Shown here: positions 2,558 to 33,671 of the stretch, piece after piece | Position numbering within the stretch: the first letter of the stretch is position 1 | How the letters are laid out: every line of letters starts with the position of its first letter | Source of the DNA: Candidatus Omnitrophota bacterium | GTDB lineage: Bacteria; Omnitrophota; Gorgyraeia; Gygaellales; Profunditerraquicolaceae | Direction: 5' to 3' | Length of the DNA: 64,000 nt | Assembly: GCA_026387355.1 (NCBI GenBank) | Contig: JAPLLW010000008.1 | Location: 1,016 to 65,015 of the forward strand | Translations under genes and position numbers: made by a program | Notes under the pieces: generated by a model | What the model saw: only the letters and a program-made list of their open reading frames with translations | What the model was told of the DNA's origin: nothing | Database searches by the model: none

Positions 2558-2938
2558 ATGTTCTTTAAAAAGTCTGATCCTACAGATAAAAGGGTACACA
2601 AAAGGTTAAAGGCTCGCCTTCTGGTTAAGTATCACCTCAAAGATGGTATGTCTGAGAATGTGGTAACCAATTTAAAGAATATTAGCGTTGGGGGCGTATC
2701 TTTTGCTACCGGAATTTCAGTAACAAAGAACAGTTTCTTAGAATTAGAGATATTATTTTTGCCCGAGGGATATCTTTTGAAAACTAAGGGAAAGGTTGTT
2801 TGGGTAAACTTGATAGCTAGGAGTAAGCAGTATCTGTTAGGAATCGAATTTGAGGGATTATCCGAGCAGGATAAAGAATTATTGAATCGGTACATTAACG
2901 AGGCCCTAAAATTTAATAGCAAAAAGAACTTTAAATAA
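2558..2938 (+). CDS. PilZ-domain (c-di-GMP receptor) protein
   Basis: 'KRVHKRLKAR' (RxxxR-type) followed by 'NISVGGVSF' (D/NxSxGG) PilZ signature; about 125 aa; immediately downstream of the Wzc-like gene. Confidence 0.7.
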   Translation: MFFKKSDPTDKRVHKRLKARLLVKYHLKDGMSENVVTNLKNISVGGVSFATGISVTKNSFLELEILFLPEGYLLKTKGKVVWVNLIARSKQYLLGIEFEGLSEQDKELLNRYINEALKFNSKKNFK

Positions 2939-2953
2939 GCTCTTATGTAAAGA

Positions 2954-4327
2954 ATGAACACTATAAAGTTATTAATTTTTATCATTTTTTTAGTTGTTAT
3001 GGTTTTAATGGCTTTAAACTCCCCTCTGCCACCTGCTTTAAGCTTGCTTACCATTTCGCTGTTACTTGCGGCTTTGATCTTAGTAATGATGATAAGCGTA
3101 GAACTTCCCATTGCTATCTTGATTCTTGCTATGCTTTTTTCTCCGGAAATAAGCGTTGGGGCAACCGTCTCAAGAGGGATAATTATACGTTTTGATGATA
3201 TCTTCATAATCCTTATTTTTATTATTTGGTTATTCAAAATGGCGGTTAATAAGCAATTAGGCCTCTTGAGACATACCTCGATTAATCTTCCCATTTGGAC
3301 ATATATTTTTATCTGTATTCTTTCTTCGATTAGTGCTTTTTACAACGGTATTGCGCAAAATCGCATTCTTTCAGGGGCATTTTTCATCTTAAAGTACTTG
3401 GAATATTTCTGTGTTTATTTTTTCGTACTCAACAACATAAAGACAGAGAAGCAGCTTAAACTCTTCTACAGTTTTCTTATGTTTACGTATCTGGCAGTAT
3501 GCGTTTATGGCTATATGCAGATTTTTACTTTTTTGCCTTCGGCAGAATCAGGCGCATTTAGGATAACCGCGCCTTTTGAGGGCAAGCCAGGAGAGCCAAA
3601 CACATTATCAGCATATTTAATGCTCTTAATGTCGCTTGCCCTGGGGGGTTTTCTTTATGAGAATAAGTATAGACTTAAGTTAACCTATCTAGCATTATTC
3701 CTATTGGGTATTTATCCGCTTTGCTATACGTTATCGCGTTCCGGGTATATGGGTTTCTTGACAATGTGCGTGGCTACGTTATTAATCGCTAGAAAAAAGA
3801 TTGTTTTTCTACTACCGGTCATCGTTATTCTTACGATGCTATTGTCGTATAATTTACCGGTCCAGGTAAAAAATAGAATTTCAGCTACTTTTGTTGGTAA
3901 GAAATATTCAGTTGGAGATGTTTCTATTGAGATTGATGGTTCGGCTAGGGAAAGAGTCACCAGCTACAAAGATGTGTTGGAGAAGAGGTATCCTTTGCAC
4001 CCGTTTTTAGGGACCGGCACCGCTTCGACCTTTATAGATGGACAATATTTTTCGGTATTAGCAGAGAATGGTTTATTCGGTTTGTTGGCTTTTTTTTGGA
4101 TTATCTTGGCTATTTTTGGTATTTGCAGAAAAAACTTAATTTTATTAAAAAAGGATAATTTCTCTCAGGGGTTAATCAGGGGTTTTTTGGCCGGCTTTAT
4201 TGGGTTATTAGTACATGCTTTGAGCGCAAATACTTTTATTTTGATACGGATTATGGAGCCATTCTGGTTTATAGTAGCTCTAATTGCTGCTTTACCTTTA
4301 GCTTTAGAGAAGAAAGTTAGTGTATAA
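2954..4327 (+). CDS. Wzy-like polysaccharide polymerase / O-antigen ligase family membrane protein
   Basis: About 11 predicted TM helices with a large periplasmic loop near the C-terminus; lies between Wzc and Wzx homologues. Confidence 0.55.
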   Translation: MNTIKLLIFIIFLVVMVLMALNSPLPPALSLLTISLLLAALILVMMISVELPIAILILAMLFSPEISVGATVSRGIIIRFDDIFIILIFIIWLFKMAVNKQLGLLRHTSINLPIWTYIFICILSSISAFYNGIAQNRILSGAFFILKYLEYFCVYFFVLNNIKTEKQLKLFYSFLMFTYLAVCVYGYMQIFTFLPSAESGAFRITAPFEGKPGEPNTLSAYLMLLMSLALGGFLYENKYRLKLTYLALFLLGIYPLCYTLSRSGYMGFLTMCVATLLIARKKIVFLLPVIVILTMLLSYNLPVQVKNRISATFVGKKYSVGDVSIEIDGSARERVTSYKDVLEKRYPLHPFLGTGTASTFIDGQYFSVLAENGLFGLLAFFWIILAIFGICRKNLILLKKDNFSQGLIRGFLAGFIGLLVHALSANTFILIRIMEPFWFIVALIAALPLALEKKVSV

Positions 4328-4333
4328 TAATCA

Positions 4334-5893
4334 ATGTCAGAAGAAAAAGAAAAATTAAGCTTTTCCCATGCAATGATTAGAAATACTACCTGGAATTTGT
4401 TCGGGCAGGGGTGTTTATTTCTTGTCGTTTTCTTTTCCACGCCATTTATCATTCGTACCTTGGGGGTAAATCTATACGGCATTTATGCTTTTGTCAGCGT
4501 AATTATAGGATATTTTTCCTTTCTCCAGCTGGGTCTGGGAGCGGCTTCAATAAAATACATATCTCAATATCTCGCGGCTAAAGAAGAAGAAAAAATAAGG
4601 AGTATATTCTGGGTATGCCTATTCACCAATATCTTTTTGGGGCTGGTAGGGATGGGAATAATCTTTTTGTCTGCTCCGTTCTTAGTGGGGAGGTTTTTAA
4701 AAATGCCCCAGGAGTTAAAAGAAACTTGTATCTTTGTTTTAAAAGCGGGATCGTTTGGATTCCTGATTGCTTTGATCCAAAGTGCGGTAGCTGGGGCAAT
4801 TCAGGCAGCGGGAAGATTCGATACACTAAATCGCGTAAGTGTTCTATTCGGCACGCTTCAGGCCCTCACGGCAGTCGCTATCTTAAAAATGGGTTTTTCA
4901 ATAAAAGGAATGATTATCTCAAACCTAGTAGTTAGTGCCGTAGCTGTGTATGTCTATTGGCTAAATACAAAAAAGATCTATCCGTTTCTAAGGAATCCGT
5001 TTTGGGATGGGAAAGCGTTAATTAAGCTATTCAAGTTTGGAAGCTTTGTTACCGTCTCTTCCGTGGTCAACCCGATATTACTCAATATCGAGAAAATTAT
5101 TTTGACCTCAATGCGCTCCGTAGCCAGCCTTGCTTATTATTCCGTACCATTTTCGCTGGTAGATAGGTTGACTATGATAAGGTCATCTTTTTCAGCTGTA
5201 TTATTTCCTGCTTTCAGCTCTTTGCAGGATTCTTATGAAGCCAAAAAAAGCGAAGTAAATAAAGACCTGCATTTTAGAAGTACCCTGTATATAATTTTTT
5301 TATACTCATTCTTCGCGTTGTTCTTTTTATACTTCGGTAAGGATTTTCTTAAGGTATGGTTAGGCAGTGATTTTGCAAATAATTCTACTAAGGCCCTAGT
5401 TATTTTAGCTTTCGCCGGACTAATTAACGCTTGCGCCGCTCCTTCGATGAATGCGCTTCAGGGGATGGACAGGCCGCATTTACCAGCTATATTCCACGTT
5501 TTTGAAACCGTATTGTATATACCTTTAGCTCTTATTTTAATTTATAAATTTGGCACAACTGGAGCAGCTCTGGCTTGGTTTCTACGTGTTTTATTAGACA
5601 TGCTACTTTTACATAAAGCTTCCTGTGATTTATTAGGAGAAAATATCTTTGTTTGGTATGCGAATATTCTTCGCCGAGCCCTGTCGCCAATACTATTTTC
5701 CGGCCTGTTGTTTTGGTGGCTTGAGAGCCTTAGACTACCTTTATTAAGTCCGTTAACCATCAGTCTTATCATTTGTGTTTTTATCCTTTATGTTTTTATG
5801 GTATGGAGGTGGGGGATGGATAATTTTGACAGAGTAAAAATATCGGATTTTTTAAACATTTATTTAAATAAGTTAATCCTGCGGAGGTCTTAA
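4334..5893 (+). CDS. Wzx-like polysaccharide flippase (MOP/MATE superfamily)
   Basis: About 14 TM helices with a Polysacc_synt-type N-terminus ('TTWNLFGQGCLFLVVFFSTPFIIRTLG'). Confidence 0.6.
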   Translation: MSEEKEKLSFSHAMIRNTTWNLFGQGCLFLVVFFSTPFIIRTLGVNLYGIYAFVSVIIGYFSFLQLGLGAASIKYISQYLAAKEEEKIRSIFWVCLFTNIFLGLVGMGIIFLSAPFLVGRFLKMPQELKETCIFVLKAGSFGFLIALIQSAVAGAIQAAGRFDTLNRVSVLFGTLQALTAVAILKMGFSIKGMIISNLVVSAVAVYVYWLNTKKIYPFLRNPFWDGKALIKLFKFGSFVTVSSVVNPILLNIEKIILTSMRSVASLAYYSVPFSLVDRLTMIRSSFSAVLFPAFSSLQDSYEAKKSEVNKDLHFRSTLYIIFLYSFFALFFLYFGKDFLKVWLGSDFANNSTKALVILAFAGLINACAAPSMNALQGMDRPHLPAIFHVFETVLYIPLALILIYKFGTTGAALAWFLRVLLDMLLLHKASCDLLGENIFVWYANILRRALSPILFSGLLFWWLESLRLPLLSPLTISLIICVFILYVFMVWRWGMDNFDRVKISDFLNIYLNKLILRRS

Positions 5894-6498
5894 TGAAGAG
5901 CGGAGGTTTGAGAAAATATATTAAATTAAAGATAAAAAAATGTTTTTGTATGTTTAAGGGGATTGGTAGTTCTAGGGATGGCGCGTATGTGTCTATATCG
6001 ACGGATTTGAAGAATCCTAGGTGTATCGTATTGGGCGAAGGAGCTGTTTTAGAAAAGCGTGCAAGGCTTTATGCAAACGGAAAGAATTCCCGGGTAGAGA
6101 TTGGAGACTATACTACGATTCTCCCTTTTGCGCTTCTTAAGGCAAATGGCGGAACAATCAAGCTGGGTAAGAGGTGTACTGTTAATGATTATGTCGTACT
6201 TAATGGTCTCGGAGGGATAAATATAGGAGACGATGTTCATATTGCTTCCCATGTAGCTATAGTGGCATCGGAGCACAGGATTGAGAAATTGGGAACCCCA
6301 TATTTTAGCAAGGATATGCAGGGTCAGGGGATTAAGATAGAAAATAGTGTTTGGATTGGAGCAAATGCCGTTATTTTAGACGGAGTTACAATTGGCGCGA
6401 TGTCTGTAATTGGGGCGGGGGCGGTTGTTACTAAAGATATACCTCCTCATTCACTGGCGGTAGGTGTTCCGGCAAGAGTAATTAAGCAATTAGGTTGA
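5893..6498 (+). CDS. Hexapeptide-repeat (left-handed beta-helix) sugar O-acetyltransferase
   Basis: Repeated [LIV]G-x4 hexapeptides: 'IGANAVILDGVTIGAMSVIGAGAVVTKDIPPHSLAVGVPARVI'. Confidence 0.75.
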   Translation: MKSGGLRKYIKLKIKKCFCMFKGIGSSRDGAYVSISTDLKNPRCIVLGEGAVLEKRARLYANGKNSRVEIGDYTTILPFALLKANGGTIKLGKRCTVNDYVVLNGLGGINIGDDVHIASHVAIVASEHRIEKLGTPYFSKDMQGQGIKIENSVWIGANAVILDGVTIGAMSVIGAGAVVTKDIPPHSLAVGVPARVIKQLG

Positions 6499-6504
6499 TT
6501 TAAC

Positions 6505-7587
6505 ATGAGAATCATTTTAGCTACACCTCAGGATAAAACAGTATTGGGCGTAATCGGTTCTTATTGTAAGGCGGCACTCCAGGCTCAAGGAAATGAAGTA
6601 TCGGTTTTTGATTTCCGGAAAGAGTTTTATGCAAAGAGCACATTAATGCAGCGCTTAAAATCGGCAGTCAGATCTGCTCTTCCTTTCCTGCCTTCTTTGC
6701 GCGAATTACCAGCGGTAAAATTGGTAATAGATGATAAGGTCAACCGAATGCTGCTGGATCGTTCTGTAAAATTCAAGCCGGATATATTACTGGTACTTTG
6801 CGGTGAGAACATATCTCTTGATACCCTGATTAAGATAAAGAATGTATCAGGCACATTTACAGTTAACTGGTTTTACGATACCTTAATCTCTCCGCATAGA
6901 GAAAGTTTAGTGAGATCAGTGCTGCCTTGTTACGATTATTTGTTTATAGTGGATTCTCTCGGTGTGTTAAAGCGAATAAAAGCAGACTTTAATAAAGTCG
7001 CTACCCTGCCTTTGGCCTGTGAACCCTTGGTGCACAAGCGCGTAGTTTTATCGGATAAAGAAGCTAGGATATACGGCAGTGATGTTGCTTTCGTTGGGAC
7101 AGTAACCCCGGAACGCGAAAAGATATTAGAAGAATTAAGCGGGTTTAACCTCAAGATTTGGGGGCGCTGGAGCCGTAAATCTGCTTGCTTAAATAGTTGT
7201 TACCAAAAGAAAGATGTATATGCAGAGGAAGCAGTTAAGATCTATAACTCTTCTAAAATAATACTTGATGTTCATTCGCTTTTCGGAAGAGAGAAAGAAA
7301 TCTATAATGTTACCCCGCGATTATTTGAGGTCCCTGCATCAGGAGCATTTTTATTAACAAACTATGTTTCTCAAGTGAGCGATTTTTATAAGATTGGTGA
7401 AGAAATTATCACCTATGGAGATGTAAATGAGTTAAAGAACCAGGTTTCTTATTATCTAAAGCATCCCGATGAACGGATAAACATAGCCGAAAGAGGCTAT
7501 CAGAGGGCGCATAAAGAGCATACTTACGCAAATCGCGTGACAAAGCTTCTGGAGACCGTAAAAAATATGTACACGAGTATTAACTAA
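6505..7587 (+). CDS. CgeB-like / GT1-like glycosyltransferase-family protein
   Basis: C-terminal region 'LFEVPASGAFLLTNY...GDVNELKNQVSYYLKHPDERINIAERGYQRAHKEHTY' resembles the C-terminal domain of CgeB/DUF3880 GT1-like proteins. Confidence 0.4.
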   Translation: MRIILATPQDKTVLGVIGSYCKAALQAQGNEVSVFDFRKEFYAKSTLMQRLKSAVRSALPFLPSLRELPAVKLVIDDKVNRMLLDRSVKFKPDILLVLCGENISLDTLIKIKNVSGTFTVNWFYDTLISPHRESLVRSVLPCYDYLFIVDSLGVLKRIKADFNKVATLPLACEPLVHKRVVLSDKEARIYGSDVAFVGTVTPEREKILEELSGFNLKIWGRWSRKSACLNSCYQKKDVYAEEAVKIYNSSKIILDVHSLFGREKEIYNVTPRLFEVPASGAFLLTNYVSQVSDFYKIGEEIITYGDVNELKNQVSYYLKHPDERINIAERGYQRAHKEHTYANRVTKLLETVKNMYTSIN

Positions 7588-8738
7588 TGAGTAAAATTAA
7601 TATTTTGTACTTGCATGAAGCATCTGAAGTAGCAGGGGCGGAGAATAGCCTGATTAACTTAACAGCTAAGCTGAGCCGCTTGGAGTTTAATCCGATATTT
7701 ATCTTACCCAAAGATGGACCACTATGCACAGAACTAAAGAAATTAGGCGTAGAGGTTAATTTTATTTCATTTCCTAAGATAAGAGAATTACGTGGTGTCT
7801 TAAAGAGCATTAAGCACATTTTTCAGCTGATCAATAAAAAAGGAATTGATATTATTCATTCAAATAGCATTCGTACTCATATTTATGGAGCCATAGCCGC
7901 GAAGCTTAAGAAAATACCTATTATCTGGCATCAGAGGAACTTAATTACTGATGAAAAGATCGATCTGGATAGGTTGCTATCTTTTATGCCGGATAAGATT
8001 ATTTGTAATTCTTTCGCTATAGCCAGGCGTTTTCTAAGAAGAAAAAGCCTTCCATGTAAGGTAGCGGTAATCCATAACGGGGTTGATACAGATAAATTTA
8101 ATTCCGTCATAGATGGTAAAAGTATACGTAATGAGTTTGGCATTAAGGATGATGAATTTGTTATCGGGATTGCCTCTAGGTTTAACTTTATGAAAGGCCA
8201 TGAAACTTTCTTCCAAGCCGCAAAAATCATACTTAATAAGAAAAACGTTTTTAGGGAGAATTTACGATTCTTGGTAGTTGGGAGTTCAGTTTTTAATGAA
8301 GATAAACCAAGAGAAGATTACCTTAAAAGGCTGATAAAAGAGCTAGGTATTGAAGACAGAGTAATCTTCACCGGGCTTAGGAGCGATATGCCTAAGGCTT
8401 ATGCGTCAATGGACATCTTTGTGTTGGCTACCGAAGCAGAGGCATGCGGCAGGGTAATTCTTGAGGCTATGGCATCAGGTAAGCCTGTGATAGCCACTGA
8501 TTCCGGGGGTAGCCCGGAGATGGTTAAAGACGGCGTTTCGGGGATTTTGTTTAAGCCGCATGATTCTAATGAGTTGGCAGAAAAGCTTTTATTTTTAATT
8601 GAAAATAAGGATCTGGCAAAGAAAATGGGGAGTAATGGGGTAAGGATAATTCAGGAGAGCTTTAGAATTGAAGATAATGTCAAGAAGACTGAAGTAATTT
8701 ACCATGAATTAATGCAAAAATATGATAGATCAAAATAA
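7587..8738 (+). CDS. Glycosyltransferase family 1 (GT4-type, retaining)
   Basis: 'EACGRVILEAMASGKPVIATDSGGSPEMV' E-x7-E-type GT1 C-terminal motif. Confidence 0.8.
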   Translation: MSKINILYLHEASEVAGAENSLINLTAKLSRLEFNPIFILPKDGPLCTELKKLGVEVNFISFPKIRELRGVLKSIKHIFQLINKKGIDIIHSNSIRTHIYGAIAAKLKKIPIIWHQRNLITDEKIDLDRLLSFMPDKIICNSFAIARRFLRRKSLPCKVAVIHNGVDTDKFNSVIDGKSIRNEFGIKDDEFVIGIASRFNFMKGHETFFQAAKIILNKKNVFRENLRFLVVGSSVFNEDKPREDYLKRLIKELGIEDRVIFTGLRSDMPKAYASMDIFVLATEAEACGRVILEAMASGKPVIATDSGGSPEMVKDGVSGILFKPHDSNELAEKLLFLIENKDLAKKMGSNGVRIIQESFRIEDNVKKTEVIYHELMQKYDRSK

Positions 8739-9906
8739 GACGTCTAGAGAAAGATCATTTTATTCGACCAAGTCGTCATGGTTTAAGAGCGCTCTTAAAA
8801 ACTTATATTTTTCCCTAAGAAGCTTGACTCTAACGCTTGTATTCCGAACCAGAAAGGCAGCAATTATCAGACAGGAGGATGTTCTTTCAATTGTAGTTAT
8901 TAGAATCGACAGGATAGGGGATCTGGTGGTTTCTTTTCCGGCGATCAAGGCCTTAAAAGAGATCTTTCCGCGCAGCCGCCTTGCGGTTATGGTTAGGCCT
9001 CAGCTAATGCCTCTCTTAAAGAATACACCCTGGATTGATGAGCGTATATCCTATAACGGTTTCTTGAATTCGATTGCAATTTTGCGTAGGAAGCATTTTT
9101 ACCTCGCAGTAGATTTGTTAATCGACTATCCGCTTAAGACTGCCTGGCTTTGTTTTTTTAGTGGGGCAAGATTAAGATTAGGTTTTGATATAGCCGGTAG
9201 GGGGAGATTGTTTAATCTCAGTCTGCGTCCAAGCCGCAAGGAGCAGAGACTTGGTGAACATACCCTAGAATTAGTTAAGTTCTTGGGAAGTGTTTTAGGT
9301 GTGTCTCAAGAGAAAATTCCTACTTCGGATTCGTGTATCTTGTTTTCTCGGGAAGATAAAGAATTTGCCGAAGAGTTTTTACGTGTTCGGGGGATAAAAA
9401 GTGATGACTTGATAATTGGCATACATCCGGGTGGGCAATTTCCTAGCCAGCATTGGATATTAGGCCGGTTTGCTGCATTAGCCGATGAAATTTACCAAAA
9501 ACATAGGGCAAAGATATTAATCTTGGGAAATTCCAACGAAAAAGAGCTGGTTGACAAGCTCAGTTCATTAATGAAGATAAAGCCAATTTTAACTGTAGGT
9601 CTTTCTTTGAATAAACTCGCCGCAATTATCGCACATTTTGATATACTGGTTTGTAATAATTCAGGGTTGTTGCATATTGCAGCCGCCTTAGAAATACCGA
9701 CTGTATCGACGATGGGTCCGACGCACCCGCAACTCTGGTCACCTAAAGGAGATAACCATATCGTACTAAGAAAAGAATTAGCCTGTAGCCCTTGTAACAG
9801 GCCTGTATGCGCCAGGCATGATTGCATGAAGTTAATTACTGTAGATGAAGTTTTGAGTGGGGTTGAGAACCAGATAAGTAAAATAGAAAATGCTAAAGTC
9901 AGTTAA
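8722..9906 (+). CDS. Glycosyltransferase family 9 (heptosyltransferase-like)
   Basis: 'ILSIVVIRIDRIGDLVVSFPAIKALKEIFP' N-terminus and 'LVCNNSGLLHIAAALEIPTVSTMGPTHP' C-terminus are typical of the RfaF/RfaC/WaaQ family. Confidence 0.7.
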   Translation: MIDQNKTSRERSFYSTKSSWFKSALKNLYFSLRSLTLTLVFRTRKAAIIRQEDVLSIVVIRIDRIGDLVVSFPAIKALKEIFPRSRLAVMVRPQLMPLLKNTPWIDERISYNGFLNSIAILRRKHFYLAVDLLIDYPLKTAWLCFFSGARLRLGFDIAGRGRLFNLSLRPSRKEQRLGEHTLELVKFLGSVLGVSQEKIPTSDSCILFSREDKEFAEEFLRVRGIKSDDLIIGIHPGGQFPSQHWILGRFAALADEIYQKHRAKILILGNSNEKELVDKLSSLMKIKPILTVGLSLNKLAAIIAHFDILVCNNSGLLHIAAALEIPTVSTMGPTHPQLWSPKGDNHIVLRKELACSPCNRPVCARHDCMKLITVDEVLSGVENQISKIENAKVS

Positions 9907-9908
9907 GG

Positions 9909-10976
9909 ATGTATATGAGTAAACCATTTTTTTACTGTCCAGATTGTAGAGGAGACCTATCGCTTCAGGATAACGCATATTTTTGCCTGCGGTGCTCTTC
10001 TCGTTGGCCCGTTAAGCAGGGTATCCCTGTTTTTATAAAGAATGAATTGCCTTATTGGGCGGAAATACCTAAGGCCGAAGCAATTCGATTTAATATTTTG
10101 GCGCAAGATTTAGGTTGGCGGGAAGCAATGAGAAAATCCCTTCCTGCTGGTTTGCAGGAATTCATATCAGATAAAGATAGGGTTGGCTGGAAATATTTTA
10201 TTGAATCCGATATCTCCGGTAAAGTTCTCGATGTCGGAAGCGGTTGGGGGGCTCTCGCCTTTTCTTTTGCGAAAAACTGTGAAGCAGTCTATGCCTTAGA
10301 GCCGGTCTGGGAAAGGGTAAATTTCATACGCATCAGAGCAGAGCAGGATAGAGAAGGTAATCTATTTCCGGTTTGCGCAGACGCTCTCAATTTGCCATTT
10401 CCGGATAATTACTTTGACCTAGTTATTTTTAACGGGGTCTTAGAGTGGCTAGGTTGTTCCGACTTAAGGCTTAAGCCAGATATTGCGCAGGAAAAAGGAT
10501 TAAAAGAGGCGCAAAGGGTATTAAGGCCCGGAGGATCTCTTTACATAGGCATCGAAAACAAGCTCTCTTTTTTTTATTTTCTTGGGGTTAAAGACCCGCA
10601 TAGCAGGTTGCGTTTCGCTACTTTAATGCCAAAGAAAATAGCAAATCTTTATTCGAAATTATTAAAAAAGAAGGAATATAGAACCTATATTTATTCCATG
10701 CCTGGTTACAGGGAATTGCTATCTAAGTCAGGGTTTAAGAGTGTATCTTTTTTTCTGCCTGCCCCAGGCTATATAAAATTTAAACATATTGTTGCCTTGG
10801 ATAAAGATAGAATTAACGATATAGATTATTTCTTCAGATTGATTAATTTCAGAATAATATTCTCACCAGCTTTATTCCGGATATTTTTTGTTCTTGTTAA
10901 AATGTTATTTAGTCCTTTTCTTAGGAATATTTTTAAGCTTTTTGTGCCTGACTATCTTATAATTGCTAAGAAATAA
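9909..10976 (+). CDS. Class I SAM-dependent methyltransferase with N-terminal Trm112-like zinc ribbon
   Basis: N-terminal 'CPDC...CLRC' followed by 'QGIPVF'; SAM motif I 'VLDVGSGWG'; motif post-I 'ALEPVWERV'; 'LRPGGSLYIGIEN'. Confidence 0.65.
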   Translation: MYMSKPFFYCPDCRGDLSLQDNAYFCLRCSSRWPVKQGIPVFIKNELPYWAEIPKAEAIRFNILAQDLGWREAMRKSLPAGLQEFISDKDRVGWKYFIESDISGKVLDVGSGWGALAFSFAKNCEAVYALEPVWERVNFIRIRAEQDREGNLFPVCADALNLPFPDNYFDLVIFNGVLEWLGCSDLRLKPDIAQEKGLKEAQRVLRPGGSLYIGIENKLSFFYFLGVKDPHSRLRFATLMPKKIANLYSKLLKKKEYRTYIYSMPGYRELLSKSGFKSVSFFLPAPGYIKFKHIVALDKDRINDIDYFFRLINFRIIFSPALFRIFFVLVKMLFSPFLRNIFKLFVPDYLIIAKK

Positions 10977-12025: not shown

Positions 12026-12051
12026 GACAGTTTATATGTAAATTTAATACT

Positions 12052-13072
12052 ATGAAAGATGTATACAAGAAGATTCTGATAATTAATCTCGGCAGTATCG
12101 GCGATATACTTTTATCTACTCCGGCTTTAGGAGGAATGAAAACATGTTTTTCCGGATCTCAAATCTCCATGTTGGCTATAAAGAGAGCCCATTTTTTGAC
12201 AAGGGGCTTGCTTTATATAGAAAAATGCTCATTTTTTTGTACGGGGGGTTAGAAATTTCTTAAAAGATTTAAAGACGCTGCTAGGATTAAGAAAATAATC
12301 TTATGATTTAGCAGTGAATATGCGCACTCTTGTTTCATGATGGGGAGCTCAGAAGATTAGGCTGTTTTTAGCTATAATTAATCCGTACCTTAAGGCAAAA
12401 AGTAATGCTAGCGCAAGAGGTAGTTTCTTTGATATAAACATAAAATAGAGTGATATGGGTGATAAATACGAGATGGAGTATGGTATAGAAATTGTAGAAG
12501 CAATCGGAGCGGAGGTTAGAGATAAGAAAATAGATTTGTTTGTAAATAGCCTTGAAGCCCGTAAGATCGATCAAATTCTTGAGCAAGAAGGCTTAGCTAA
12601 AAGCGATACGCTTGTCGGTATACATCCGGGGGGGGCAATTTCCAAGCCAGCGTTGGATATTAGAGAGGGTTGCTGAATTAGCCGGTAAGATTGCTCAAAA
12701 ACATAAGGTAAAAATATTGATTTTGGGGCATTCTAGCATAAAGACCTGGCTGATAAGATTGTTGCATTAATGAAGATAAAGCCAATTTTAGCCTTAGGTA
12801 TTTCTTAAAATAGGCTTGTTGCGATTATCGCACATTTTGATATACTGGTTTGTAATAATTCAGGGCCTTTGCATATTGCTGCGAGCTTTAGGATGCCTAT
12901 AGTATCGACGATGGGGCCGACGCATCCTTATCTCTGGCTGCCTATGGAGGATAACTATATTGTGCTTAGGAAAGGACTTTCTTGCAGCTCTTGCAGCAGG
13001 CCTGTTTGTCACAGACATAAATGTATGGAGTTAATTTCGACAGATGAAGTCTTACAGGTGGTTGAAATTTAA
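12052..13072 (+). pseudogene. Degenerate duplicate of the GT9 heptosyltransferase gene at 8722..9906 (frameshifts and stops)
   Basis: Three short ORFs (12052-12252, 12455-12676, 12869-13072) each align to successive parts of the 8722..9906 product, e.g. 'PIVSTMGPTHPYLWLPMEDNYIVLRKGLSCSSCSRPVCHRHKCMELISTDEVL' versus 'PTVSTMGPTHPQLWSPKGDNHIVLRKELACSPCNRPVCARHDCMKLITVDEVL'. Nucleotide stretch 12769-12890 closely matches 9570-9690. An in-frame TAA and indels interrupt the reading frame. Confidence 0.75.
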
Positions 13073-13098
13073 ATCAACAGATTGAAGAAAAGTTAGGT

Positions 13099-26370: not shown

Positions 26371-26715
26371 ATGATAAAGGATAGATTCGAAGAAAAAAGA
26401 AAATATCCGCGCGTTAACAAGGATGCTTACATTGATTATTCTTTTAAGACTCCTAAGGGTCAGGTTAACGAAGGGTTACGTTTAAGCGTAAATATAAGCG
26501 CCGGCGGACTGATGTTTGTGACTTCTAGATGCTTAAAGAAAGGAATAAAATTAAAGTTAAATATTAATATCGGGAGCGTTTCAAAGCCGATTAAGGCTTT
26601 TGCTAAGGTGGCTTGGGTTAAAAGGCGTGAAGACGGGGAATATGCCGTCGGAGTTGTTTTTTATCGTATCAGTGAGGCAGGCAGAAAGAAAATACTTCTT
26701 TATTCTTTATTCTAA
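26371..26715 (+). CDS. PilZ-domain protein
   Basis: 'RKYPRV' (RxxxR) followed by 'NISAGGLMF' (DxSxGG); 114 aa. Confidence 0.7.
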   Translation: MIKDRFEEKRKYPRVNKDAYIDYSFKTPKGQVNEGLRLSVNISAGGLMFVTSRCLKKGIKLKLNINIGSVSKPIKAFAKVAWVKRREDGEYAVGVVFYRISEAGRKKILLYSLF

Positions 26716-26729
26716 AGTTCTCGCCGTTA

Positions 26730-28820
26730 TTATCTGGGATTTTCTTCTTCGGAATAGTATTGTTTATACTGGTAATATTTGTAATAATAGTCGGAATCCG
26801 TTCGGAATAGGCTGGAGATATCATTTAGAACAATTCCCGTAACATTTGCCTTCAAGGTCACAAACTCTTCCTTTGTGCGTATTAAGACCTGGCGGGATAT
26901 TTTTCCGAGCTTATGCACTAATAATACCGAGTCTACTTTAGGAGCTAAAACTAAAGCGTCTGCTAGAGGCAAAGCAGGAGGGGTGTCTAGGATTATAACC
27001 TCAAAATTGGCGCTTAAATCTTTCAATAAATTATCCATTTCCTCAGAACTTAATAATTCGGTAGAGTTCGGTGTTCTTGACCCGGAAGTGATGATGCTTA
27101 AGTTGTCTAGCCCTGTAGTTTTTAAGGCTTGATCCCAATCAGCCTCCATCAGGATGTCGACTAGATTTCTGGCTGTTTCTTCCCATGGCGCAGAAGCGGT
27201 TAAAATTTCCGTAAGCCCAGGGTAACTTTTCTTGAAACCAAAGGCTTTATGTATAGAAGGTTTTCTTAGGTCTGCATCAATAAGCATAACTTTATGCCCC
27301 ATTTGAGCAATAATGATGGCAAGATTTATGCTGGTCATGCTTTTACCTTCCATGGGGCTGGAGCTAGAAACAAGAATTTTTTTACCCAGTTCTTTATCGA
27401 TCCCGAGTTTCTGAAATAAATTTGCTTGAAGCATGCGGAAGGCTTCTTTTACTATAGATTTCTCTTCATAATTAATAAGCAATCTCTTGGTGGCCTGCAC
27501 AGGGTTCGCTGTTCTTTCTTTTCTGAGTATGTAATGCCGCAGGTTTTCTAATAAAGTTTCCTTAAAAGATTTCTTTTTTTCATCGGGCAATTCGAAATAC
27601 GGTATGAGCCCGATTACCTGTATCCCGGTAACTTTTTCCACCTCTTCTATGGTTCTTACCGAAAAGTCAAGTTGTTCGAAGATGAAGGCAGCAATAATAC
27701 CGGCAAGTGCTCCTGTGAGAAGGCCAAAGATTATTATCAAGGGTAAGTTAATGTTGATAGGGGTGCGAGATTCTACCGCCCGGTCCACGATAGTGACCGA
27801 TTGCGCCTTTTTGCTCTCCTCATTAATCCGGGCATCATCAAGTTTGCTTTTTAGAAGGGTGTAGAGTTTCTCATCGTTAGTAATTTCTCTTTTTAGGCGC
27901 ATCTCCTCTAGTTGTAGATTAGGAGGAATCTCGATAGTAGAAATGACCTCGGAATCCTGAATATCGTCTTTTTTCTGGAAGGTCTCCAACTGCTTCTTTA
28001 AAGACTCGTTTTCGCTTTTTATTGCGATTACATTTGGGTGGGATTCTGTATAAACTGTCAGCAGTTCCCGTAATTTATCTTCATTGCTTGTGAGTTTATT
28101 TTTTAAGGATAGATAGGGAAGGTTCGCCTGTTGTCTTTTTTTGATTTCGATAAGCTGTTCCCGCTTATATTTGTCAATCCCCTCGTTATGTTTCTTTAAT
28201 GCCTCCTCTGAAGCGGCTAGCCTTTTTGAGATCTCTGCCAGGCGTCCTTCTATGAAATTTACTACCATAGCCGCCTGTCTGGATATTTCATTTTTTGCCT
28301 CTGTAACATAGACTTCGGCGATTTTATTAGCAATATCCTTTGCTTTCTTGGGATCAGTATTTTTTACAGTGATCTTAACCACGTTGCTTTCCGGTAAGGC
28401 CTCTGCGGAAATATTGCTCACTAAAGAGCCGACGATTGCGTTAATGCTGTTTTGATCGGAATCTTGAGGTATAAGATTTAATTCTCTGGCTACTTTTTCA
28501 ATAAGTTGTCTGCTTGTGATAATCGTTGCTTGAGAATTAAGTAAATCTGCGGCCGGCTGTTTAGAAAGGCCCGGCATATTGATGTCAGCATTGGAAAACT
28601 CGATGACTATTTTTACGGTTGTGCTTGCTTGGAAGATGGGGGTGCGGGTATTGCCGTAGATGATATTTATCAGAAAGACAACCAGAAAGACGGAGAGGAT
28701 TACCGTTTTTCTTTTACGAAAGATCCGGATATAATCTCTGAGGTTTAATTCGTATTCAGGCATAGTTTTCTTGCTTTTTACTATATCATAGTATAAAATT
28801 AATGTCAAGGAGCCCCACAT
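26730..28820 (-). CDS. Wzc-like polysaccharide co-polymerase / BY-kinase (second paralogue)
   Basis: Two TMs plus coiled-coil periplasmic domain; Walker A 'SPMEGKS'; 'VMLIDADLRKP'; 'VIILDTPP'; C-terminal 'DYYYKYYQYKQYY'. Confidence 0.85.
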   Translation of the reverse strand: MWGSLTLILYYDIVKSKKTMPEYELNLRDYIRIFRKRKTVILSVFLVVFLINIIYGNTRTPIFQASTTVKIVIEFSNADINMPGLSKQPAADLLNSQATIITSRQLIEKVARELNLIPQDSDQNSINAIVGSLVSNISAEALPESNVVKITVKNTDPKKAKDIANKIAEVYVTEAKNEISRQAAMVVNFIEGRLAEISKRLAASEEALKKHNEGIDKYKREQLIEIKKRQQANLPYLSLKNKLTSNEDKLRELLTVYTESHPNVIAIKSENESLKKQLETFQKKDDIQDSEVISTIEIPPNLQLEEMRLKREITNDEKLYTLLKSKLDDARINEESKKAQSVTIVDRAVESRTPININLPLIIIFGLLTGALAGIIAAFIFEQLDFSVRTIEEVEKVTGIQVIGLIPYFELPDEKKKSFKETLLENLRHYILRKERTANPVQATKRLLINYEEKSIVKEAFRMLQANLFQKLGIDKELGKKILVSSSSPMEGKSMTSINLAIIIAQMGHKVMLIDADLRKPSIHKAFGFKKSYPGLTEILTASAPWEETARNLVDILMEADWDQALKTTGLDNLSIITSGSRTPNSTELLSSEEMDNLLKDLSANFEVIILDTPPALPLADALVLAPKVDSVLLVHKLGKISRQVLIRTKEEFVTLKANVTGIVLNDISSLFRTDSDYYYKYYQYKQYYSEEENPR

Positions 28821-29450: not shown

Positions 29451-30638
29451 ATGAGGTGTGCTATAATAAAAACAATGAAATTGCCGTTACCTATTGTTCT
29501 ATTAACCTGCGTTTTACTTTTAACTTTTTCTAGCGTAGTGTTAGGTGAAAGTAACCCCGTCATTAAGGATTCATCAGTAGCTATTCCTATTGGGCAGGAA
29601 GTCATTGCCCCAGCAGATAAAATATTAATTACTATTTGGAGAAAGCCGGATCATTCTGAAATAGAGCTCGACGGTAATTTCGCAGTAGATAAAGATGGAT
29701 TTGTAAATCTCTCTACCATTGGCCAGATTAAGGCCGCAGGCCTGTCTATCCCGCAATTAAAAGAAGAGCTTATTAAGCAGGCAGGTCGGTTTCTAAAGTC
29801 TCCTGAGGTTGCTGTAAGCCCGGCGAAAATCCAGGATAGCGAACCAGGTGTGTTTTCTAAAAAGGAAGAGATAGATAAGCTAGTTGCAGAACAATCAAGA
29901 GATAGAAGGAAGCAGATGGCCAGGGATAGGGATGATATAGTAGAGGCGCAAGAGGGTTATGATATTGGTATTAAAAAGAATAAGTCCCGCACGGCTAAGG
30001 TTAAGCCAAATGTTGTAAGATATACCTCTATCTTAGAAGAAAGAAAGCCTGCAGAGTACACTATTAATATAGATGATGTTTTGGATGTTACGGTTTGGCA
30101 AAACCCGGAACTTTCCAAAGAAGTCACCGTGCGTTCTGACGGAAGGATTACCCTGCTTCTGGCCGGGGATGTTCAGGCAGCGGGGCTTACGACTACACAA
30201 TTAAAAGACGAGATAGCTAAGAAACTCGGCACTTATGTAATTAATCCGCAGGTAGCAGTAACATTAAAGAAATTCGGCGGTAAAAGGATAGTGGTTTTAG
30301 GTGAAGTCAGGCAGCCGGGTACCTATAAGCTTGATGCAAATGCGCGTTTAATGGAGGCTATCGGGATGGCTGAAGGGTTTACGGACAAATCTTTTACAGG
30401 AAGCGTTCTTTTGGCAAGAGCCGATTCTTATGGTAATCCGCGCATTTTTATTATTGATACTTATGATATCATGGGTAGGGGCAGGGTTGACAAAAATATA
30501 ATTCTTCAACAGTTTGATGTAGTCTATGTACCTCGTACAAAGATTTGGAATGTTGTAAACTTGCTAAAGCCTTTCGCTGATCTGATTGCCGAGGTTAAGA
30601 CAGCCTCTAACAACTCTCAGATGATGTTTGTTGAATAA
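29451..30638 (+). CDS. wza: Wza-like outer-membrane polysaccharide export protein (Poly_export plus SLBB domains)
   Basis: Two 'DxL...(I/V)...DGx(I/V)xLxxxGx(I/V)xAAGL(S/T)xxQL' export modules, e.g. 'DVLDVTVWQNPELSKEVTVRSDGRITLLLAGDVQAAGLTTTQLK'; signal peptide present. Confidence 0.8.
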   Translation: MRCAIIKTMKLPLPIVLLTCVLLLTFSSVVLGESNPVIKDSSVAIPIGQEVIAPADKILITIWRKPDHSEIELDGNFAVDKDGFVNLSTIGQIKAAGLSIPQLKEELIKQAGRFLKSPEVAVSPAKIQDSEPGVFSKKEEIDKLVAEQSRDRRKQMARDRDDIVEAQEGYDIGIKKNKSRTAKVKPNVVRYTSILEERKPAEYTINIDDVLDVTVWQNPELSKEVTVRSDGRITLLLAGDVQAAGLTTTQLKDEIAKKLGTYVINPQVAVTLKKFGGKRIVVLGEVRQPGTYKLDANARLMEAIGMAEGFTDKSFTGSVLLARADSYGNPRIFIIDTYDIMGRGRVDKNIILQQFDVVYVPRTKIWNVVNLLKPFADLIAEVKTASNNSQMMFVE

Positions 30639-30670
30639 ATTACAGGTGTAGTTCTATATCTAACTATTTT

Positions 30671-30765
30671 GGTCCAGGTTCCAGTATTGTATTTTCTGCG
30701 ATATATGTCGGTAAGAATTGTTTTAATCCCCGCTAGATCTTTAATCGCCATAGATATTTTTAATA
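30671..30765. repeat. Degenerate about 95-nt copy of the comM 3' coding end (direct repeat of 32127..32221)
   Basis: About 70% nucleotide identity to 32127-32221 in the same orientation, with the shared blocks 'taagaattg' and 'atatttttaata'. The minus-strand translation still shows remnants ('I.KI', 'IQY', 'LD') of the ComM C-terminus but is interrupted by stops. Confidence 0.6.
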
Positions 30766-30903
30766 AATAAAGTAATTAACGTTTAATATAGGCAGTATAG
30801 TATCCGCAAGGGGCGAATTACCTTAAGTTACGATTAGAATCAATCTCCGTACCACTTGTTTGTGTTATAATTATAAACAAAAATTGTATAAACTTAAAGC
30901 AAT

Positions 30904-32118
30904 ATGAATATCGATAAAGCAAGAAGAATTGACTATTGGATTGGGGTGCCTTTGTGTTTTTTGCTAAGTTGCCTAAATTTTGTTCAAAGATTAGTTTGTT
31001 TTAAGCAAAAAAATGCGGGCCCACCCAAGAGAATTCTCTTGATAAAACTTTCAGAGTTGGGCACCATCATTCTGGCATATCCGCTTTTAAATCGGATAAA
31101 AAAAGAATATCCCTGTGCAGAGTTATTTTTTGTAACGTTCAGCAGAAACCGGGGTATTTTTAAATTATTAGGAGGGATAGTTCCCGACAAGAATATCTTG
31201 GGGATACGGGAAGAGAGGCGCTTTCTTATATTAGATACATTAAGTGCGATTAAGAGATTACGTCAAGAAGGGATAGATGTTACTTTTGATTTGGAGTTTT
31301 TCTCGCGATTTTCGGCAGCATTAGCTTATCTTGTTAAATCTAGCAAAAGAATAGGTTTTTATCACTATGCTTTTGAAGGGTTATATAGAGGAAATCTTTT
31401 AACCCATAAAATACAGTACAATCCTTTAAGTCACATAACTAAGAATTATTTATCTCTAGTTCAAGACATCGAGCAGTCAGGTAAGAACATGCCTCAATTG
31501 GCAGAAACAATAGAAGAAAGAGAAGTAGTATTTCCAAAATATGCTTCGCACAATGAAGTAAAAGATAAGGTATTGAAGAAAATCAGAGAGGCCGGGGTGG
31601 ATCCAGACAAAAATAAGCTGTTGCTTATTAATCCTGGTGAAGGTATGTTGCCGTTAAGAGAATGGCCTATAGAGAACTTCATTCTTTTGTCAAAGCTAAT
31701 CCTAGAAAATAACAATAATTCTGTAATCTTAATTGGTACAGAAGGAGTATCTGGGAAAGCTTGCGCAATTTTAAGGGCGATAAATAACCCAAGGTGCATA
31801 AGCTTGGTTAAACAGACACAACTCGACGAACTCTTAGAACTTTTTAATATTTCACAAGCTTTAATCTCCAATGATTGCGGTCTAGCGCATTTAGCGATGC
31901 TCTCCCCTATTAGGAAATTCATTATTTTTGGTCCGGAAAGTCCGCAAATATTTGGTCCGCTAGGAATTAATAACCGGATAATATATGCGAATTGGCCTTG
32001 CTCTCCGTGTTTATCAGTGCTTAACCATAGGGGCTCTTTATGCAAGGATAATTGGTGCTTAAGGAATATAAAAACTGAAGATGTTTATGGATTGATTAAG
32101 AATGAAGTGAAATTTTAA
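30904..32118 (+). CDS. Glycosyltransferase family 9 (heptosyltransferase-like), distinct from the 8722 copy
   Basis: 'ILLIKLSELGTIILAYPLLNRIKKEYP' and 'ISNDCGLAHLAMLSPIRKFIIFGPESPQIFGP'. Confidence 0.7.
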   Translation: MNIDKARRIDYWIGVPLCFLLSCLNFVQRLVCFKQKNAGPPKRILLIKLSELGTIILAYPLLNRIKKEYPCAELFFVTFSRNRGIFKLLGGIVPDKNILGIREERRFLILDTLSAIKRLRQEGIDVTFDLEFFSRFSAALAYLVKSSKRIGFYHYAFEGLYRGNLLTHKIQYNPLSHITKNYLSLVQDIEQSGKNMPQLAETIEEREVVFPKYASHNEVKDKVLKKIREAGVDPDKNKLLLINPGEGMLPLREWPIENFILLSKLILENNNNSVILIGTEGVSGKACAILRAINNPRCISLVKQTQLDELLELFNISQALISNDCGLAHLAMLSPIRKFIIFGPESPQIFGPLGINNRIIYANWPCSPCLSVLNHRGSLCKDNWCLRNIKTEDVYGLIKNEVKF

Positions 32119-33671
32119 ATTCGGTGGTCTAGGCTTCTGTACTGTATTGCCTCAGAAATATGCTCGATAAGAATTGCTTCAGCTCCCGTTAAATCCGCAA
32201 TCGTTCTGGATATTTTTAATATCTTATCATAGGCTCGCGCAGATAATCCTAACTCATGCATAGCCTGTTTTAGTAATTCTTTAGCCGGCGTATCCAGGAT
32301 ACAGTATTTTCGGATCAACTTCGCGTTCATTGCCGCATTACAAAATATTCCATCAGTTTTTAATCTCTCCCTTTGAACCTCACGGGATTTCTCAACGCGG
32401 TTTTTGATTGCTACGGAAGGTTCCGCATCTTTTGTATCAGTTAAATCTCGGTACTTTATGGAAGATAATTCAATGTGTATATCAATTCTATCTAAGAGAG
32501 GTCCGGATATTTTAGCCATGTAATTTGCAATCTTATTTGGATTGCAATGGCAGGTTTTACGAGGGTCACTGTAATAACCGCAGGGGCAGGGGTTCATTGC
32601 GGCCACTAAAGTAAATGTTGCCGGAAAGGTAAGTGATTTGAATATCCGCGATACGCGTATTGAACCGTCTTCCAAGGGTTGTCTTAGGCTCTCTAAACAG
32701 TCGCGCCGGAATTCTGGCAATTCGTCCAGGAAAAGTACTCCTTGATGCGCCAGGCTTATTTCTCCCGGCATAGGTACCGAGCCTCCGCCAATCAGCGCTA
32801 CGCTGGATATACTGTGGTGTAGAGAACGAAACGGCCGGGTAGCTATAATACCATCTTTATTTGGCAAGATTCCCATAACCGAGTGGATCTTGCTTATTTC
32901 TAGCGCTTCTTCTAATGTTAGGTCCGGCATAATGGTGGGTACTCTTTTTGCAAGCATGGTCTTGCCGCTTCCTGGAGGGCCAATCATCAGAATATTATGT
33001 CCTCCGGCAACAGCTACCTCCATCGCCCTTTTTGCAAGGTATTGGCCTTTTACTTCCGAGAAATCAATATTATAACGGTTGTTTTCTTTGAATAAATCTT
33101 CTAAGTCTAGCTTAAATGGCTTAAGCATACTCGGATTGCTAAGAAACTCCACGCTTTCTTTAAGCGATTTAAGCGAGAATACAGATGTTCTCGAGACTAT
33201 AGATGCTTCTTTGGCGTTTAGTTCGGGAATGATTATATTATTGGTTGATGGGTTGTTTAATCTTGCTATAGCCATAGCTATGGGCAAGGCGCCTTTAATT
33301 GATTTGAGTGAGCCGTCCAAGGAAAGCTCTCCTAAAACAAAATAGTTTTTAAGTCCTTCTTTATTTAGCTGTTCAGTTGCTGCAAGAATGCCTAAAGCGA
33401 TGGGTAAGTCAAAGCAAGCGCCCTCTTTTTTAACCCCCGAAGGTGCTAAGCTTACGGTAATTCTCTCCGGTGGCCAGTAGAATCCGGAATTCTTAATTGC
33501 TGACCGGACTCGCTCCTTGCTTTCTTTGACTGCTGAATCAGGAAGCCCGACCAGGTTTAGGGCTGGTAGTCCACCTGAAACATCAACCTCAATCTCTACC
33601 GGGTAGCCTTCTATCCCTTGTAAGCCAAAACTCAATACTTTAGCAAGCATCAGCTCCTCCATGTTTACCAT
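32115..33671 (-). CDS. comM: ComM/YifB-family Mg-chelatase-like AAA+ ATPase
   Basis: N-terminal Lon-like domain; Walker A 'GPPGSGKT'; 'VLFLDELPEF'; C-terminal 'HHSISSVALIGGG'-type ChlI region. Confidence 0.85.
   Translation of the reverse strand: MVNMEELMLAKVLSFGLQGIEGYPVEIEVDVSGGLPALNLVGLPDSAVKESKERVRSAIKNSGFYWPPERITVSLAPSGVKKEGACFDLPIALGILAATEQLNKEGLKNYFVLGELSLDGSLKSIKGALPIAMAIARLNNPSTNNIIIPELNAKEASIVSRTSVFSLKSLKESVEFLSNPSMLKPFKLDLEDLFKENNRYNIDFSEVKGQYLAKRAMEVAVAGGHNILMIGPPGSGKTMLAKRVPTIMPDLTLEEALEISKIHSVMGILPNKDGIIATRPFRSLHHSISSVALIGGGSVPMPGEISLAHQGVLFLDELPEFRRDCLESLRQPLEDGSIRVSRIFKSLTFPATFTLVAAMNPCPCGYYSDPRKTCHCNPNKIANYMAKISGPLLDRIDIHIELSSIKYRDLTDTKDAEPSVAIKNRVEKSREVQRERLKTDGIFCNAAMNAKLIRKYCILDTPAKELLKQAMHELGLSARAYDKILKISRTIADLTGAEAILIEHISEAIQYRSLDHRI

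Follow-up and report, generated by a model that had tools for sequence, protein, structure and literature searches.

How does the 3′ end of a gene come to lie a second time, broken and out of place, on the far side of an intact neighbour? This question is raised by a 64-kb stretch of DNA (the window: 64,000 nucleotides of contig JAPLLW010000008.1, assembly GCA_026387355.1, from a Candidatus Omnitrophota bacterium), in which a gene for a family 9 glycosyltransferase (GT9) is located between the end of comM and a diverged copy of that end. A preliminary description of the locus had proposed an insertion at comM that duplicated its 3′ part, either as a decayed island remnant or as a single-gene cassette. 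The first option is upheld by a copy that sits at the native flank, by an array of displaced comM tails in a related locus and by serine recombinases that use comM in viral contigs; a recent 1.4-kb cassette is not. On balance, we consider it probable, if by no means certain, that the structure is the decayed relic of an old insertion at comM around codon 361, which left behind the outer copy of the comM 3′ third while the inserted block shrank to GT9.

Local alignment of positions 30670-30765 against 32125-32221, in direct orientation, covers 97 columns with one 1-nt indel at ~73% identity and yields a score of 43. In comparison, 830 other 300-nt segments of the window, taken from both strands, gave a mean of 11.1 (standard deviation 1.7, maximum 22), and 500 dinucleotide shuffles reached a maximum of 18. 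The ~95-nt direct repeat of the comM terminus claimed in the preliminary description is thus well supported. Its functional partner is the end of the comM/YifB gene, an intact open reading frame of 518 residues at 32115-33671 on the minus strand (Pfam: ChlI, Mg_chelatase, Mg_chelatase_C), whose stop codon (32115-32117, minus strand) overlaps that of GT9 (32116-32118), as had also been noted. The distal copy lies 1.46 kb away from this end. Its minus-strand translation reads LLKISMAIKDLAGIKTILTDI / ISQKIQYWNLDQNS followed by a stop, and the genuine ComM C-terminus reads ILKISRTIADLTGAEAILIEHISEAIQYRSLDHRI followed by a stop; a single frameshift interrupts the copy, and the stop codons are in register (30660-30662 and 32115-32117). 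The copy has no coding capacity, in agreement with the earlier view that it no longer encodes protein, and it adjoins the native flank at the comM stop codon. Significant similarity to the parent gene, a broken frame and substitutions without codon bias, the hallmarks of a gene-fragment pseudogene, are all present. The distal copy is a decaying pseudo-comM fragment without present function.

At the comM-internal edge of both copies lies a perfect 13-mer, GATATTTTTAATA (30753-30765 and 32209-32221), which occurs only these two times in the window; yet 15 of 100 shuffles contained at least two matches. Taken together with the direct repeats that flank GT9 alone, this 13-mer is what recommends a recent 1.4-kb cassette, inserted at the extreme 3′ end of comM with the 95-nt repeats as att sites and the 13-nt identity as crossover core. 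By our own estimate, however, a run of 13 matches is expected ~0.4 times in a 97-nt alignment at 73% identity and is therefore not rare, and 5 nt of the 13-mer are deleted in a closely related strain, L045. Moreover, the window holds no integrase gene, and the true edge of the copy turned out to lie elsewhere, at codon ~361, as described below. We therefore regard a recent single-gene cassette as highly improbable.

The original extent of the copy emerged from two loci whose GT9 is clearly diverged from that of the window. In L030 (GT9 66-67% identical at the amino acid level), pieces derived from comM lie at 6759-6925, just upstream of GT9 and on the comM strand. They correspond to codons ~361-397 and to codon ~503 through the stop plus ~14 nt of downstream spacer, and GT9 together with a gene for a TPR membrane protein stands between this partial copy and the real comM. 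The second locus, L049 (GT9 67% identical to the window), contains a cleaner partial copy at 2-139, spanning residues ~353/361-398, which has no start codon and runs off the contig; the same pair of GT9 and TPR-membrane-protein genes follows, and the contig ends before any comM. In the available contigs the real comM of these two loci is cut off or missing. The region upstream of GT9 is shared as well, with alignment scores of 22 for the window against L030 and 30 for L045 against L030 (null 9.5 ± 1.5, maximum 17-20).

Comparison with these loci revealed a second comM remnant in the window, at 30793-30815, which is identical to the L049 copy at 18 of 19 positions; as read directly from the alignment, three of its four differences from the window's own comM are synonymous. 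When the remnant alone was compared with the window comM, the score of 11 was not significant (null 11.8), so the idea that it can be recognised from the window itself was rejected; only L030 and L049 make it visible. The partial copies in the window, L030, L049, L045 and the outermost copy of a further locus, L052 (psi2, see below), all start at CCC/CTGCGG, the codons for PCG of MNPCPCGY. This shared start at codon ~361 indicates that the original copy ran from there to the stop codon, over ~480 nt. Judged from these alignments, the edge at 30765 with its 13-mer is best taken as an internal deletion or conversion boundary and not as an att core. The 95-nt piece thus stands as described, but the repeat is not confined to it, since a comM remnant also lies at 30793-30815 and in the relatives the copy reaches beyond the terminal 95 nt. 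Nor does a 1.4-kb single-gene cassette fit a copy of originally ~480 nt, whose junction recurs in L030 and L049, two loci with the TPR membrane-protein gene behind GT9. As junction and GT9 upstream region are common to lineages whose GT9 proteins are only 66-67% identical, the structure is either older than their split or part of an ancient family of elements.

Not every relative has kept the copy. L027, which is sister to L049 in a tree of GT9, has lost it, and a six-frame protein-profile search of the Omnitrophota loci and the window, with a profile that covers residues ~392-518 only, detected no further copies in L027-L029, L034, L046 and L047. A sense-oriented comM-like stretch at the start of L050/L051 was dismissed as not significant (score 13; null 10.7 ± 1.3, maximum 17).

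That insertions of this kind take place is best seen in L052 (ENA ERZ27247709 k141_946208, array at 2587-10345), which was reached via a short frameshifted ComM C-terminal protein. Here the order is AccA, YkuD, DUF212 and p205, then comM, a helix-turn-helix (HTH) and a radical-SAM gene, a first displaced comM tail (psi1), genes for a GDSL lipase, AbiEii and AbiEi, a second displaced tail (psi2) and the flank. The backbone beyond comM (p185, DUF212, YkuD, AccA) matches that of the window; no GT9 is present at the comM locus of L052. Whereas psi1 is an intact open reading frame for residues 343-525, psi2 covers residues ~362-510 and has a frameshifted tail. The ComM protein of L052 is chimeric, as its N-terminal part is 73-76% identical to the proteins of the window, L005 and L034 and its C-terminal part only 58-60%. 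Identity to other ComMs is 72-77% for psi2, the outermost copy, and this contrast with the C-terminal part of the resident protein marks psi2 as the native 3′ part. Between psi1 and the real comM end the differences fall at 35, 22 and 91 sites in the three codon positions, mostly the third, which argues that both were once functional gene ends. Although psi2 stands next to unrelated cargo, its first nucleotide coincides with that of the copies associated with GT9. The array shows what would be expected of successive insertions, each of which brings a replacement for the 3′ part of comM and pushes the previous one outward; read in this way, it shows that insertions replacing the comM 3′ third occur in Omnitrophota. 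A candidate att arm of L052 (E1), with scores of 23-25 against the corresponding arms of L030 and L049, was dismissed as promoter-like, AT-rich sequence that precedes unrelated cargo genes.

Outside Omnitrophota, comM is used by elements that still carry their recombinase. In IMG/VR, ComM C-terminal queries retrieved 32 distinct loci (L053-L084); about two dozen of these contain a partial comM only, starting between residues 225 and 359. All ten large open reading frames tested beside such pieces encode large serine recombinases, and an eleventh was found across the piece in L082. In L082 and L083 an interior comM-like piece (residues 357-396) adjoins the recombinase genes. These contigs suggest that, across several bacterial groups, comM is often targeted by serine integrases. 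Some of the viral junctions fall at residues 353-359, so that prophages and window share not only the target gene but, in part, the same segment (MNPCPCGY). In the prophages, however, the recombinase gene lies beside the comM piece, whereas the window contains no such gene. The viral comM pieces are 33-58% identical to the window ComM and stem from hosts other than Omnitrophota; a cognate Omnitrophota element with a recombinase at comM was not found among the loci analysed, all recombinase-bearing comM elements coming from other hosts.

Short proteins consisting of Mg_chelatase_C only (P0121-P0240) were recovered in addition. Their lengths cluster at 71, 128 and 131-133 residues, they share internal Met or Leu starts (MGKISGPLLD, MDRIDIH, MNTKLIKKYC), and some (P0192, P0208) have frameshifted tails. 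They may be a mixture, in part contig-end fragments and in part genuine displaced tails of comM. The list was rejected as an argument for widespread pseudo-copies, since short targets seem to be favoured by the search and most hits lie on contigs of ~1 kb.

The best-known elements at comM, the AbaR/Tn6022 islands of Acinetobacter, are Tn7-like (TnsABC, TniQ, TnsF), interrupt comM at one position and create a 5-bp target-site duplication (PMC11014353). The analogy drawn in the preliminary description therefore fails beyond comM as landing site: AbaR islands interrupt the gene and do not duplicate its 3′ end, while the window has an intact comM, a repeat of ~100 nt or more and no Tn7-like genes. 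Closer parallels exist in Dehalococcoides, where repeats of the ssrA 3′ end border tandem islands; about half of these islands have no integration module, and they have been discussed as cis-mobilizable and formed by accretion (PMC3146451). A further parallel is Streptococcus thermophilus, with ICESt1-type accretion at fda (Pavlovic et al. 2004, as cited in PMC3146451). In all of these, an intact target gene is followed by blocks with direct repeats of its 3′ part at their borders, arrays form by accretion as in L052, and an absent integration module is common to about half of the Dehalococcoides islands and to all Omnitrophota blocks seen here. The repeats differ in length, however, being ~480-550 nt of protein-coding sequence at comM and 20-27 bp in the ssrA/fda-type islands. 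Furthermore, the replacement 3′ part in Omnitrophota can be strongly diverged, as in the chimeric ComM of L052, no recombinase-bearing member was seen, and the gene carried in the window (GT9) otherwise looks vertically inherited. The dusA-associated islands target the 5′ end of dusA, with a tyrosine integrase gene as their sole universal feature, and section headings of the paper on them point to a possible restoration of the gene upon integration (PMC4482086). They resemble the comM case in their insertion into a conserved coding segment of a housekeeping gene and in their very diverse cargo; they differ in using the 5′ end together with an integrase, as opposed to the 3′ third with none (PMC4482086).

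Measured against integrative islands at gene 3′ ends, the window thus has direct repeats of the target 3′ part flanking the block and an intact target gene, and contains neither a recombinase gene inside the block nor foreign cargo. It also displays two traits of cis-mobilizable elements, att-type flanking repeats and a missing integrase.

Is GT9 cargo at all? The preliminary description took it for a foreign gene added to the exopolysaccharide locus. The gene has 656 homologs; the best 120 of these are 51-95% identical, nearly all are full length, identity declines smoothly, and several are named Omnitrophota. A look-up of GT9 returned near-identical strains only. Identity falls from 95% to 69% without intermediate relatives in the collections, the next relatives beyond L045 being 66-69% identical in GT9 or ComM. 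In the window GT9 keeps its native C-terminus, as in L027 and L049, and across ortholog contexts genes for HD, PilZ and TPR proteins recur upstream, while comM, p185, DUF212, YkuD and AccA make up the other side of the neighbourhood. The p185 and DUF212 genes also follow comM in L034, as they do in the window. Foreign origin is therefore not borne out: more than 100 full-length Omnitrophota orthologs exist, the C-terminus is native, and GT9 is convergent with comM in L029 and L034/L035, where no copy is found.

For ComM, an exact-sequence look-up matched no record. The sole close relative in the genome collection, at 69%, comes from a Candidatus Omnitrophota metagenome-assembled genome (L005, on a 3.8-kb contig), the remaining matches being Bacteroidales. 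In L005 (258-2796) comM is reversed relative to the p185 and DUF212 genes, and a gene for an excisionase-family HTH protein (PF12728, E 1e-15) lies ~0.8 kb upstream of it. Elsewhere, an island-like block (AbiEi_2, RhuM, HTH, HipA) directly precedes the GT9 ortholog P0010 in L047/L048 (1-6700); no comM fragment was detected there.

A number of these observations weigh against an insertion in the history of the window. From its sequence and context, GT9 looks like a conserved Omnitrophota gene with more than 100 full-length orthologs and not like newly acquired foreign cargo. The pair of GT9 and TPR-membrane-protein genes is conserved in eight loci, and in L029 and L034/L035 comM lies convergent with GT9, a few kb downstream, with no detectable pseudo-copy. 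With 0.35-0.38, the G+C content of GT9 falls near the bottom of the neighbours' range (0.35-0.48) and changes without a sharp break. No relative was found in which the wza-like gene directly abuts comM, the sole close relative, L045, having the same arrangement as the window. Neither an integrase nor a resolvase or transposase was found among the 58 window open reading frames scanned with Pfam (nearly all of those of at least 120 residues), as the preliminary description had stated in calling the cassette integrase-free, and the 64-kb window holds no tRNA. Likewise, no recombinase, transposase or tRNA was seen in the blocks of L030, L049 and L052, with L030 and L052 covered by precomputed Pfam lists or translated searches. 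The ComM of the window shows no N/C chimerism, both parts being equally distant from relatives. The copy in L030 extends in similarity ~14 nt beyond the comM stop, as a local duplication would predict. Finally, the reconstructed ancestral distal copy differs from comM at 9, 6 and 8 sites over the three codon positions, a neutral pattern, and third-position identity of the 95-nt piece to its own comM is 71-75%, in comparison to 34-47% among comM orthologs. This even spread and high third-position identity indicate that the 95-nt piece descends from a sequence nearly identical to the present comM end of the lineage, a pattern that, as far as the alignments tell, fits an intragenomic copy as well as a conspecific insertion.

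These points make a local event the most serious alternative. Before the lineages of the window, L030 and L049 parted, a tandem duplication would have reached from ~95 nt upstream of GT9 to comM codon ~361; the left GT9 would then have been lost, and the comM fragment would have been refreshed occasionally by gene conversion from the functional gene, 1.4-3 kb away, and eroded by deletions. Such a duplication accounts for the conserved neighbourhood of GT9 on both sides, for the convergent, copy-free order in L029 and L034/L035, for the neutral relation of the 95-nt piece to its own comM, for the lack of visible chimerism in the window ComM and for the fact that the L030 copy shares both a lineage-specific tail (DRQ) and the downstream spacer with its own comM. 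It requires, however, at least three steps per lineage, and the deletion of the left GT9 must, in the window as well as in L030, have ended no more than ~10-20 nt from the comM stop. It leaves L052 unexplained, with its foreign-type copies, unrelated cargo blocks and chimeric comM, and likewise the start of psi2 at the same nucleotide in a different context. The junction patch, finally, is nearly identical to the L049 copy, with mostly synonymous differences from the window's own comM. We give a local tandem duplication a real but minor chance.

An insertion at comM remains the reading that we prefer, since the displaced copy is shared with L030 and L049 at the same start, L052 combines an array with chimerism, and comM serves as a recombinase target. 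For the window itself we infer both an origin by this process and the type of any recombinase involved. DNA would have entered comM at the conserved segment coding for MNPCPCGY and, by bringing its own comM 3′ part, would have kept the gene intact. The previous 3′ part, from codon ~361 to the stop (~480 nt), would have been displaced outward to the old downstream flank, here the wza-like gene. The block between both copies, GT9 with the TPR membrane-protein gene in relatives, would have been reduced to GT9 in the window lineage, with no recombination gene left, and the displaced copy would then have decayed by frameshift, internal deletion and divergence at an intergenic pace. As the differences are spread evenly over codon positions, the copies were nearly identical when last homogenised, pointing to an insertion from the same population or to a later refresh by gene conversion.

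A comparison of strains illustrates this decay. Strain L045, 94% identical to the window at the nucleotide level, has the same order of wza-like gene, copy, GT9 and comM, and its distal copy carries the 5-nt deletion but no frameshift. Divergence between window and L045 amounts to 19% in the distal copy, 20-22% in the flanking intergenic DNA and 2-4% in the coding sequences of GT9 and comM. By region, it is 10-20% across 30549-31049, including coding sequence at the end of wza, and 0-7% elsewhere. L003, compared over 30349-31049, shows 28 substitutions relative to the window; the last 290 nt of wza account for 23, and the remainder of the compared region for none. Such locally raised divergence suggests strain-level recombination, with putative breakpoints around the end of wza and the start of GT9, and it renders the divergence rates across 30549-31049 only indicative. 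An age of ~3-4 times the window/L045 split, calculated for the duplication from such rates, was discarded as unreliable for the same reason.

These rates also bear on whether the distal copy is kept for a present function, be it as wza terminator, as antisense or regulatory RNA against comM, or as homology for reversible RecA-mediated loss or amplification of GT9. A short patch, CCGCAAGGGGCG, and the promoter region are conserved among the window, L045 and L030, and repeats that flank a surface-glycan gene could in principle mediate its deletion with comM left intact. However, the 95-nt piece diverges like the intergenic flanks and carries the strain-specific frameshift and 5-nt deletion. No Rfam match was found in 30400-32400, and no terminator-like site overlaps the distal copy. 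Repeats at 73% identity are, moreover, poor substrates for homologous recombination. A retained function thus has a very small chance of being correct.

A bolder variant of the insertion model does without any recombinase. The comM gene of Omnitrophota might act as a landing pad for blocks of surface-glycan or defence genes, each with ~0.5 kb from the 3′ part of comM; RecA-mediated single crossovers of the Campbell type in this homologous stretch would let the blocks in and out. Arrays of displaced tails and chimeric comM genes would result, and the comM tail, GT9 and comM of the window would represent one member that had become fixed and decayed. The comM product is a helicase that acts in natural transformation. 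If this variant, which we hold to be unlikely, were true, the insertion target would be tied to the way in which the blocks probably spread.

The features of the locus are collected in Table 1. Further upstream, the wza-like exporter gene is preceded by genes for a TPR protein and a Wzc-like kinase (Pfam), and the window as a whole contains a large polysaccharide cluster (275-24216) along with efflux, fatty-acid and other housekeeping genes. Two pairs of genes for Wzc-like tyrosine kinases and PilZ proteins occur, one at 275-2419 (+) with PilZ at 2558-2938 and one at 26730-28820 (-) with a PilZ open reading frame at ~26371-26715. Both pairs bracket the ~24-kb polysaccharide biosynthesis cluster, inside which lies a second GT9 gene (8722-9906) and a stretch of ~1 kb (12026-13098) with no open reading frame of at least 120 residues on either strand. 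The promoter-like motif upstream of the GT9 gene at 30904-32118 was not flagged by a simple promoter scan.

Table 1 Features of the comM/GT9 locus in the 64-kb window.
Feature	Position	Strand	Remarks
wza-like export gene	29451-30638	+	Pfam: Poly_export, SLBB; flank adjoining the pseudo-comM stop, 21 nt away
Distal pseudo-comM piece	30660-30765	-	Codons ~484-518 plus in-register stop (30660-30662); single frameshift near 30707
Second, heavily decayed pseudo-comM remnant	30793-30815	-	Codons ~361-367 (CGYYT); 5′ junction of the original partial copy
GT9 upstream region	30816-30903	+	-35/-10-like TTGTTT...TATAAT; homologous to the junction-to-GT9 interval in L030 and L049
GT9, family 9 glycosyltransferase, 404 aa	30904-32118	+	Pfam: Glyco_transf_9, PF01075; between both comM 3′ copies
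Proximal repeat, the functional comM 3′ end (codons 484-518 plus stop)	32115-32221	-	
Remainder of comM	32222-33671	-	The pseudo-copy junction corresponds to codons ~361-367 (roughly 32570-32591)

For the window itself these findings carry little weight, as the repeat is a dead gene fragment and GT9 looks like an ordinary resident gene. Beyond it, insertions in the uncultured phylum Omnitrophota seem to have struck the 3′ third of comM repeatedly, with incoming blocks that bring a replacement gene end. Their traces are chimeric comM genes, displaced comM tails in arrays, and cargo that includes AbiE toxin-antitoxin genes. Partial comM copies may contribute to assemblies breaking inside comM, and they could mark flexible genome regions in metagenome-assembled genomes of Omnitrophota.

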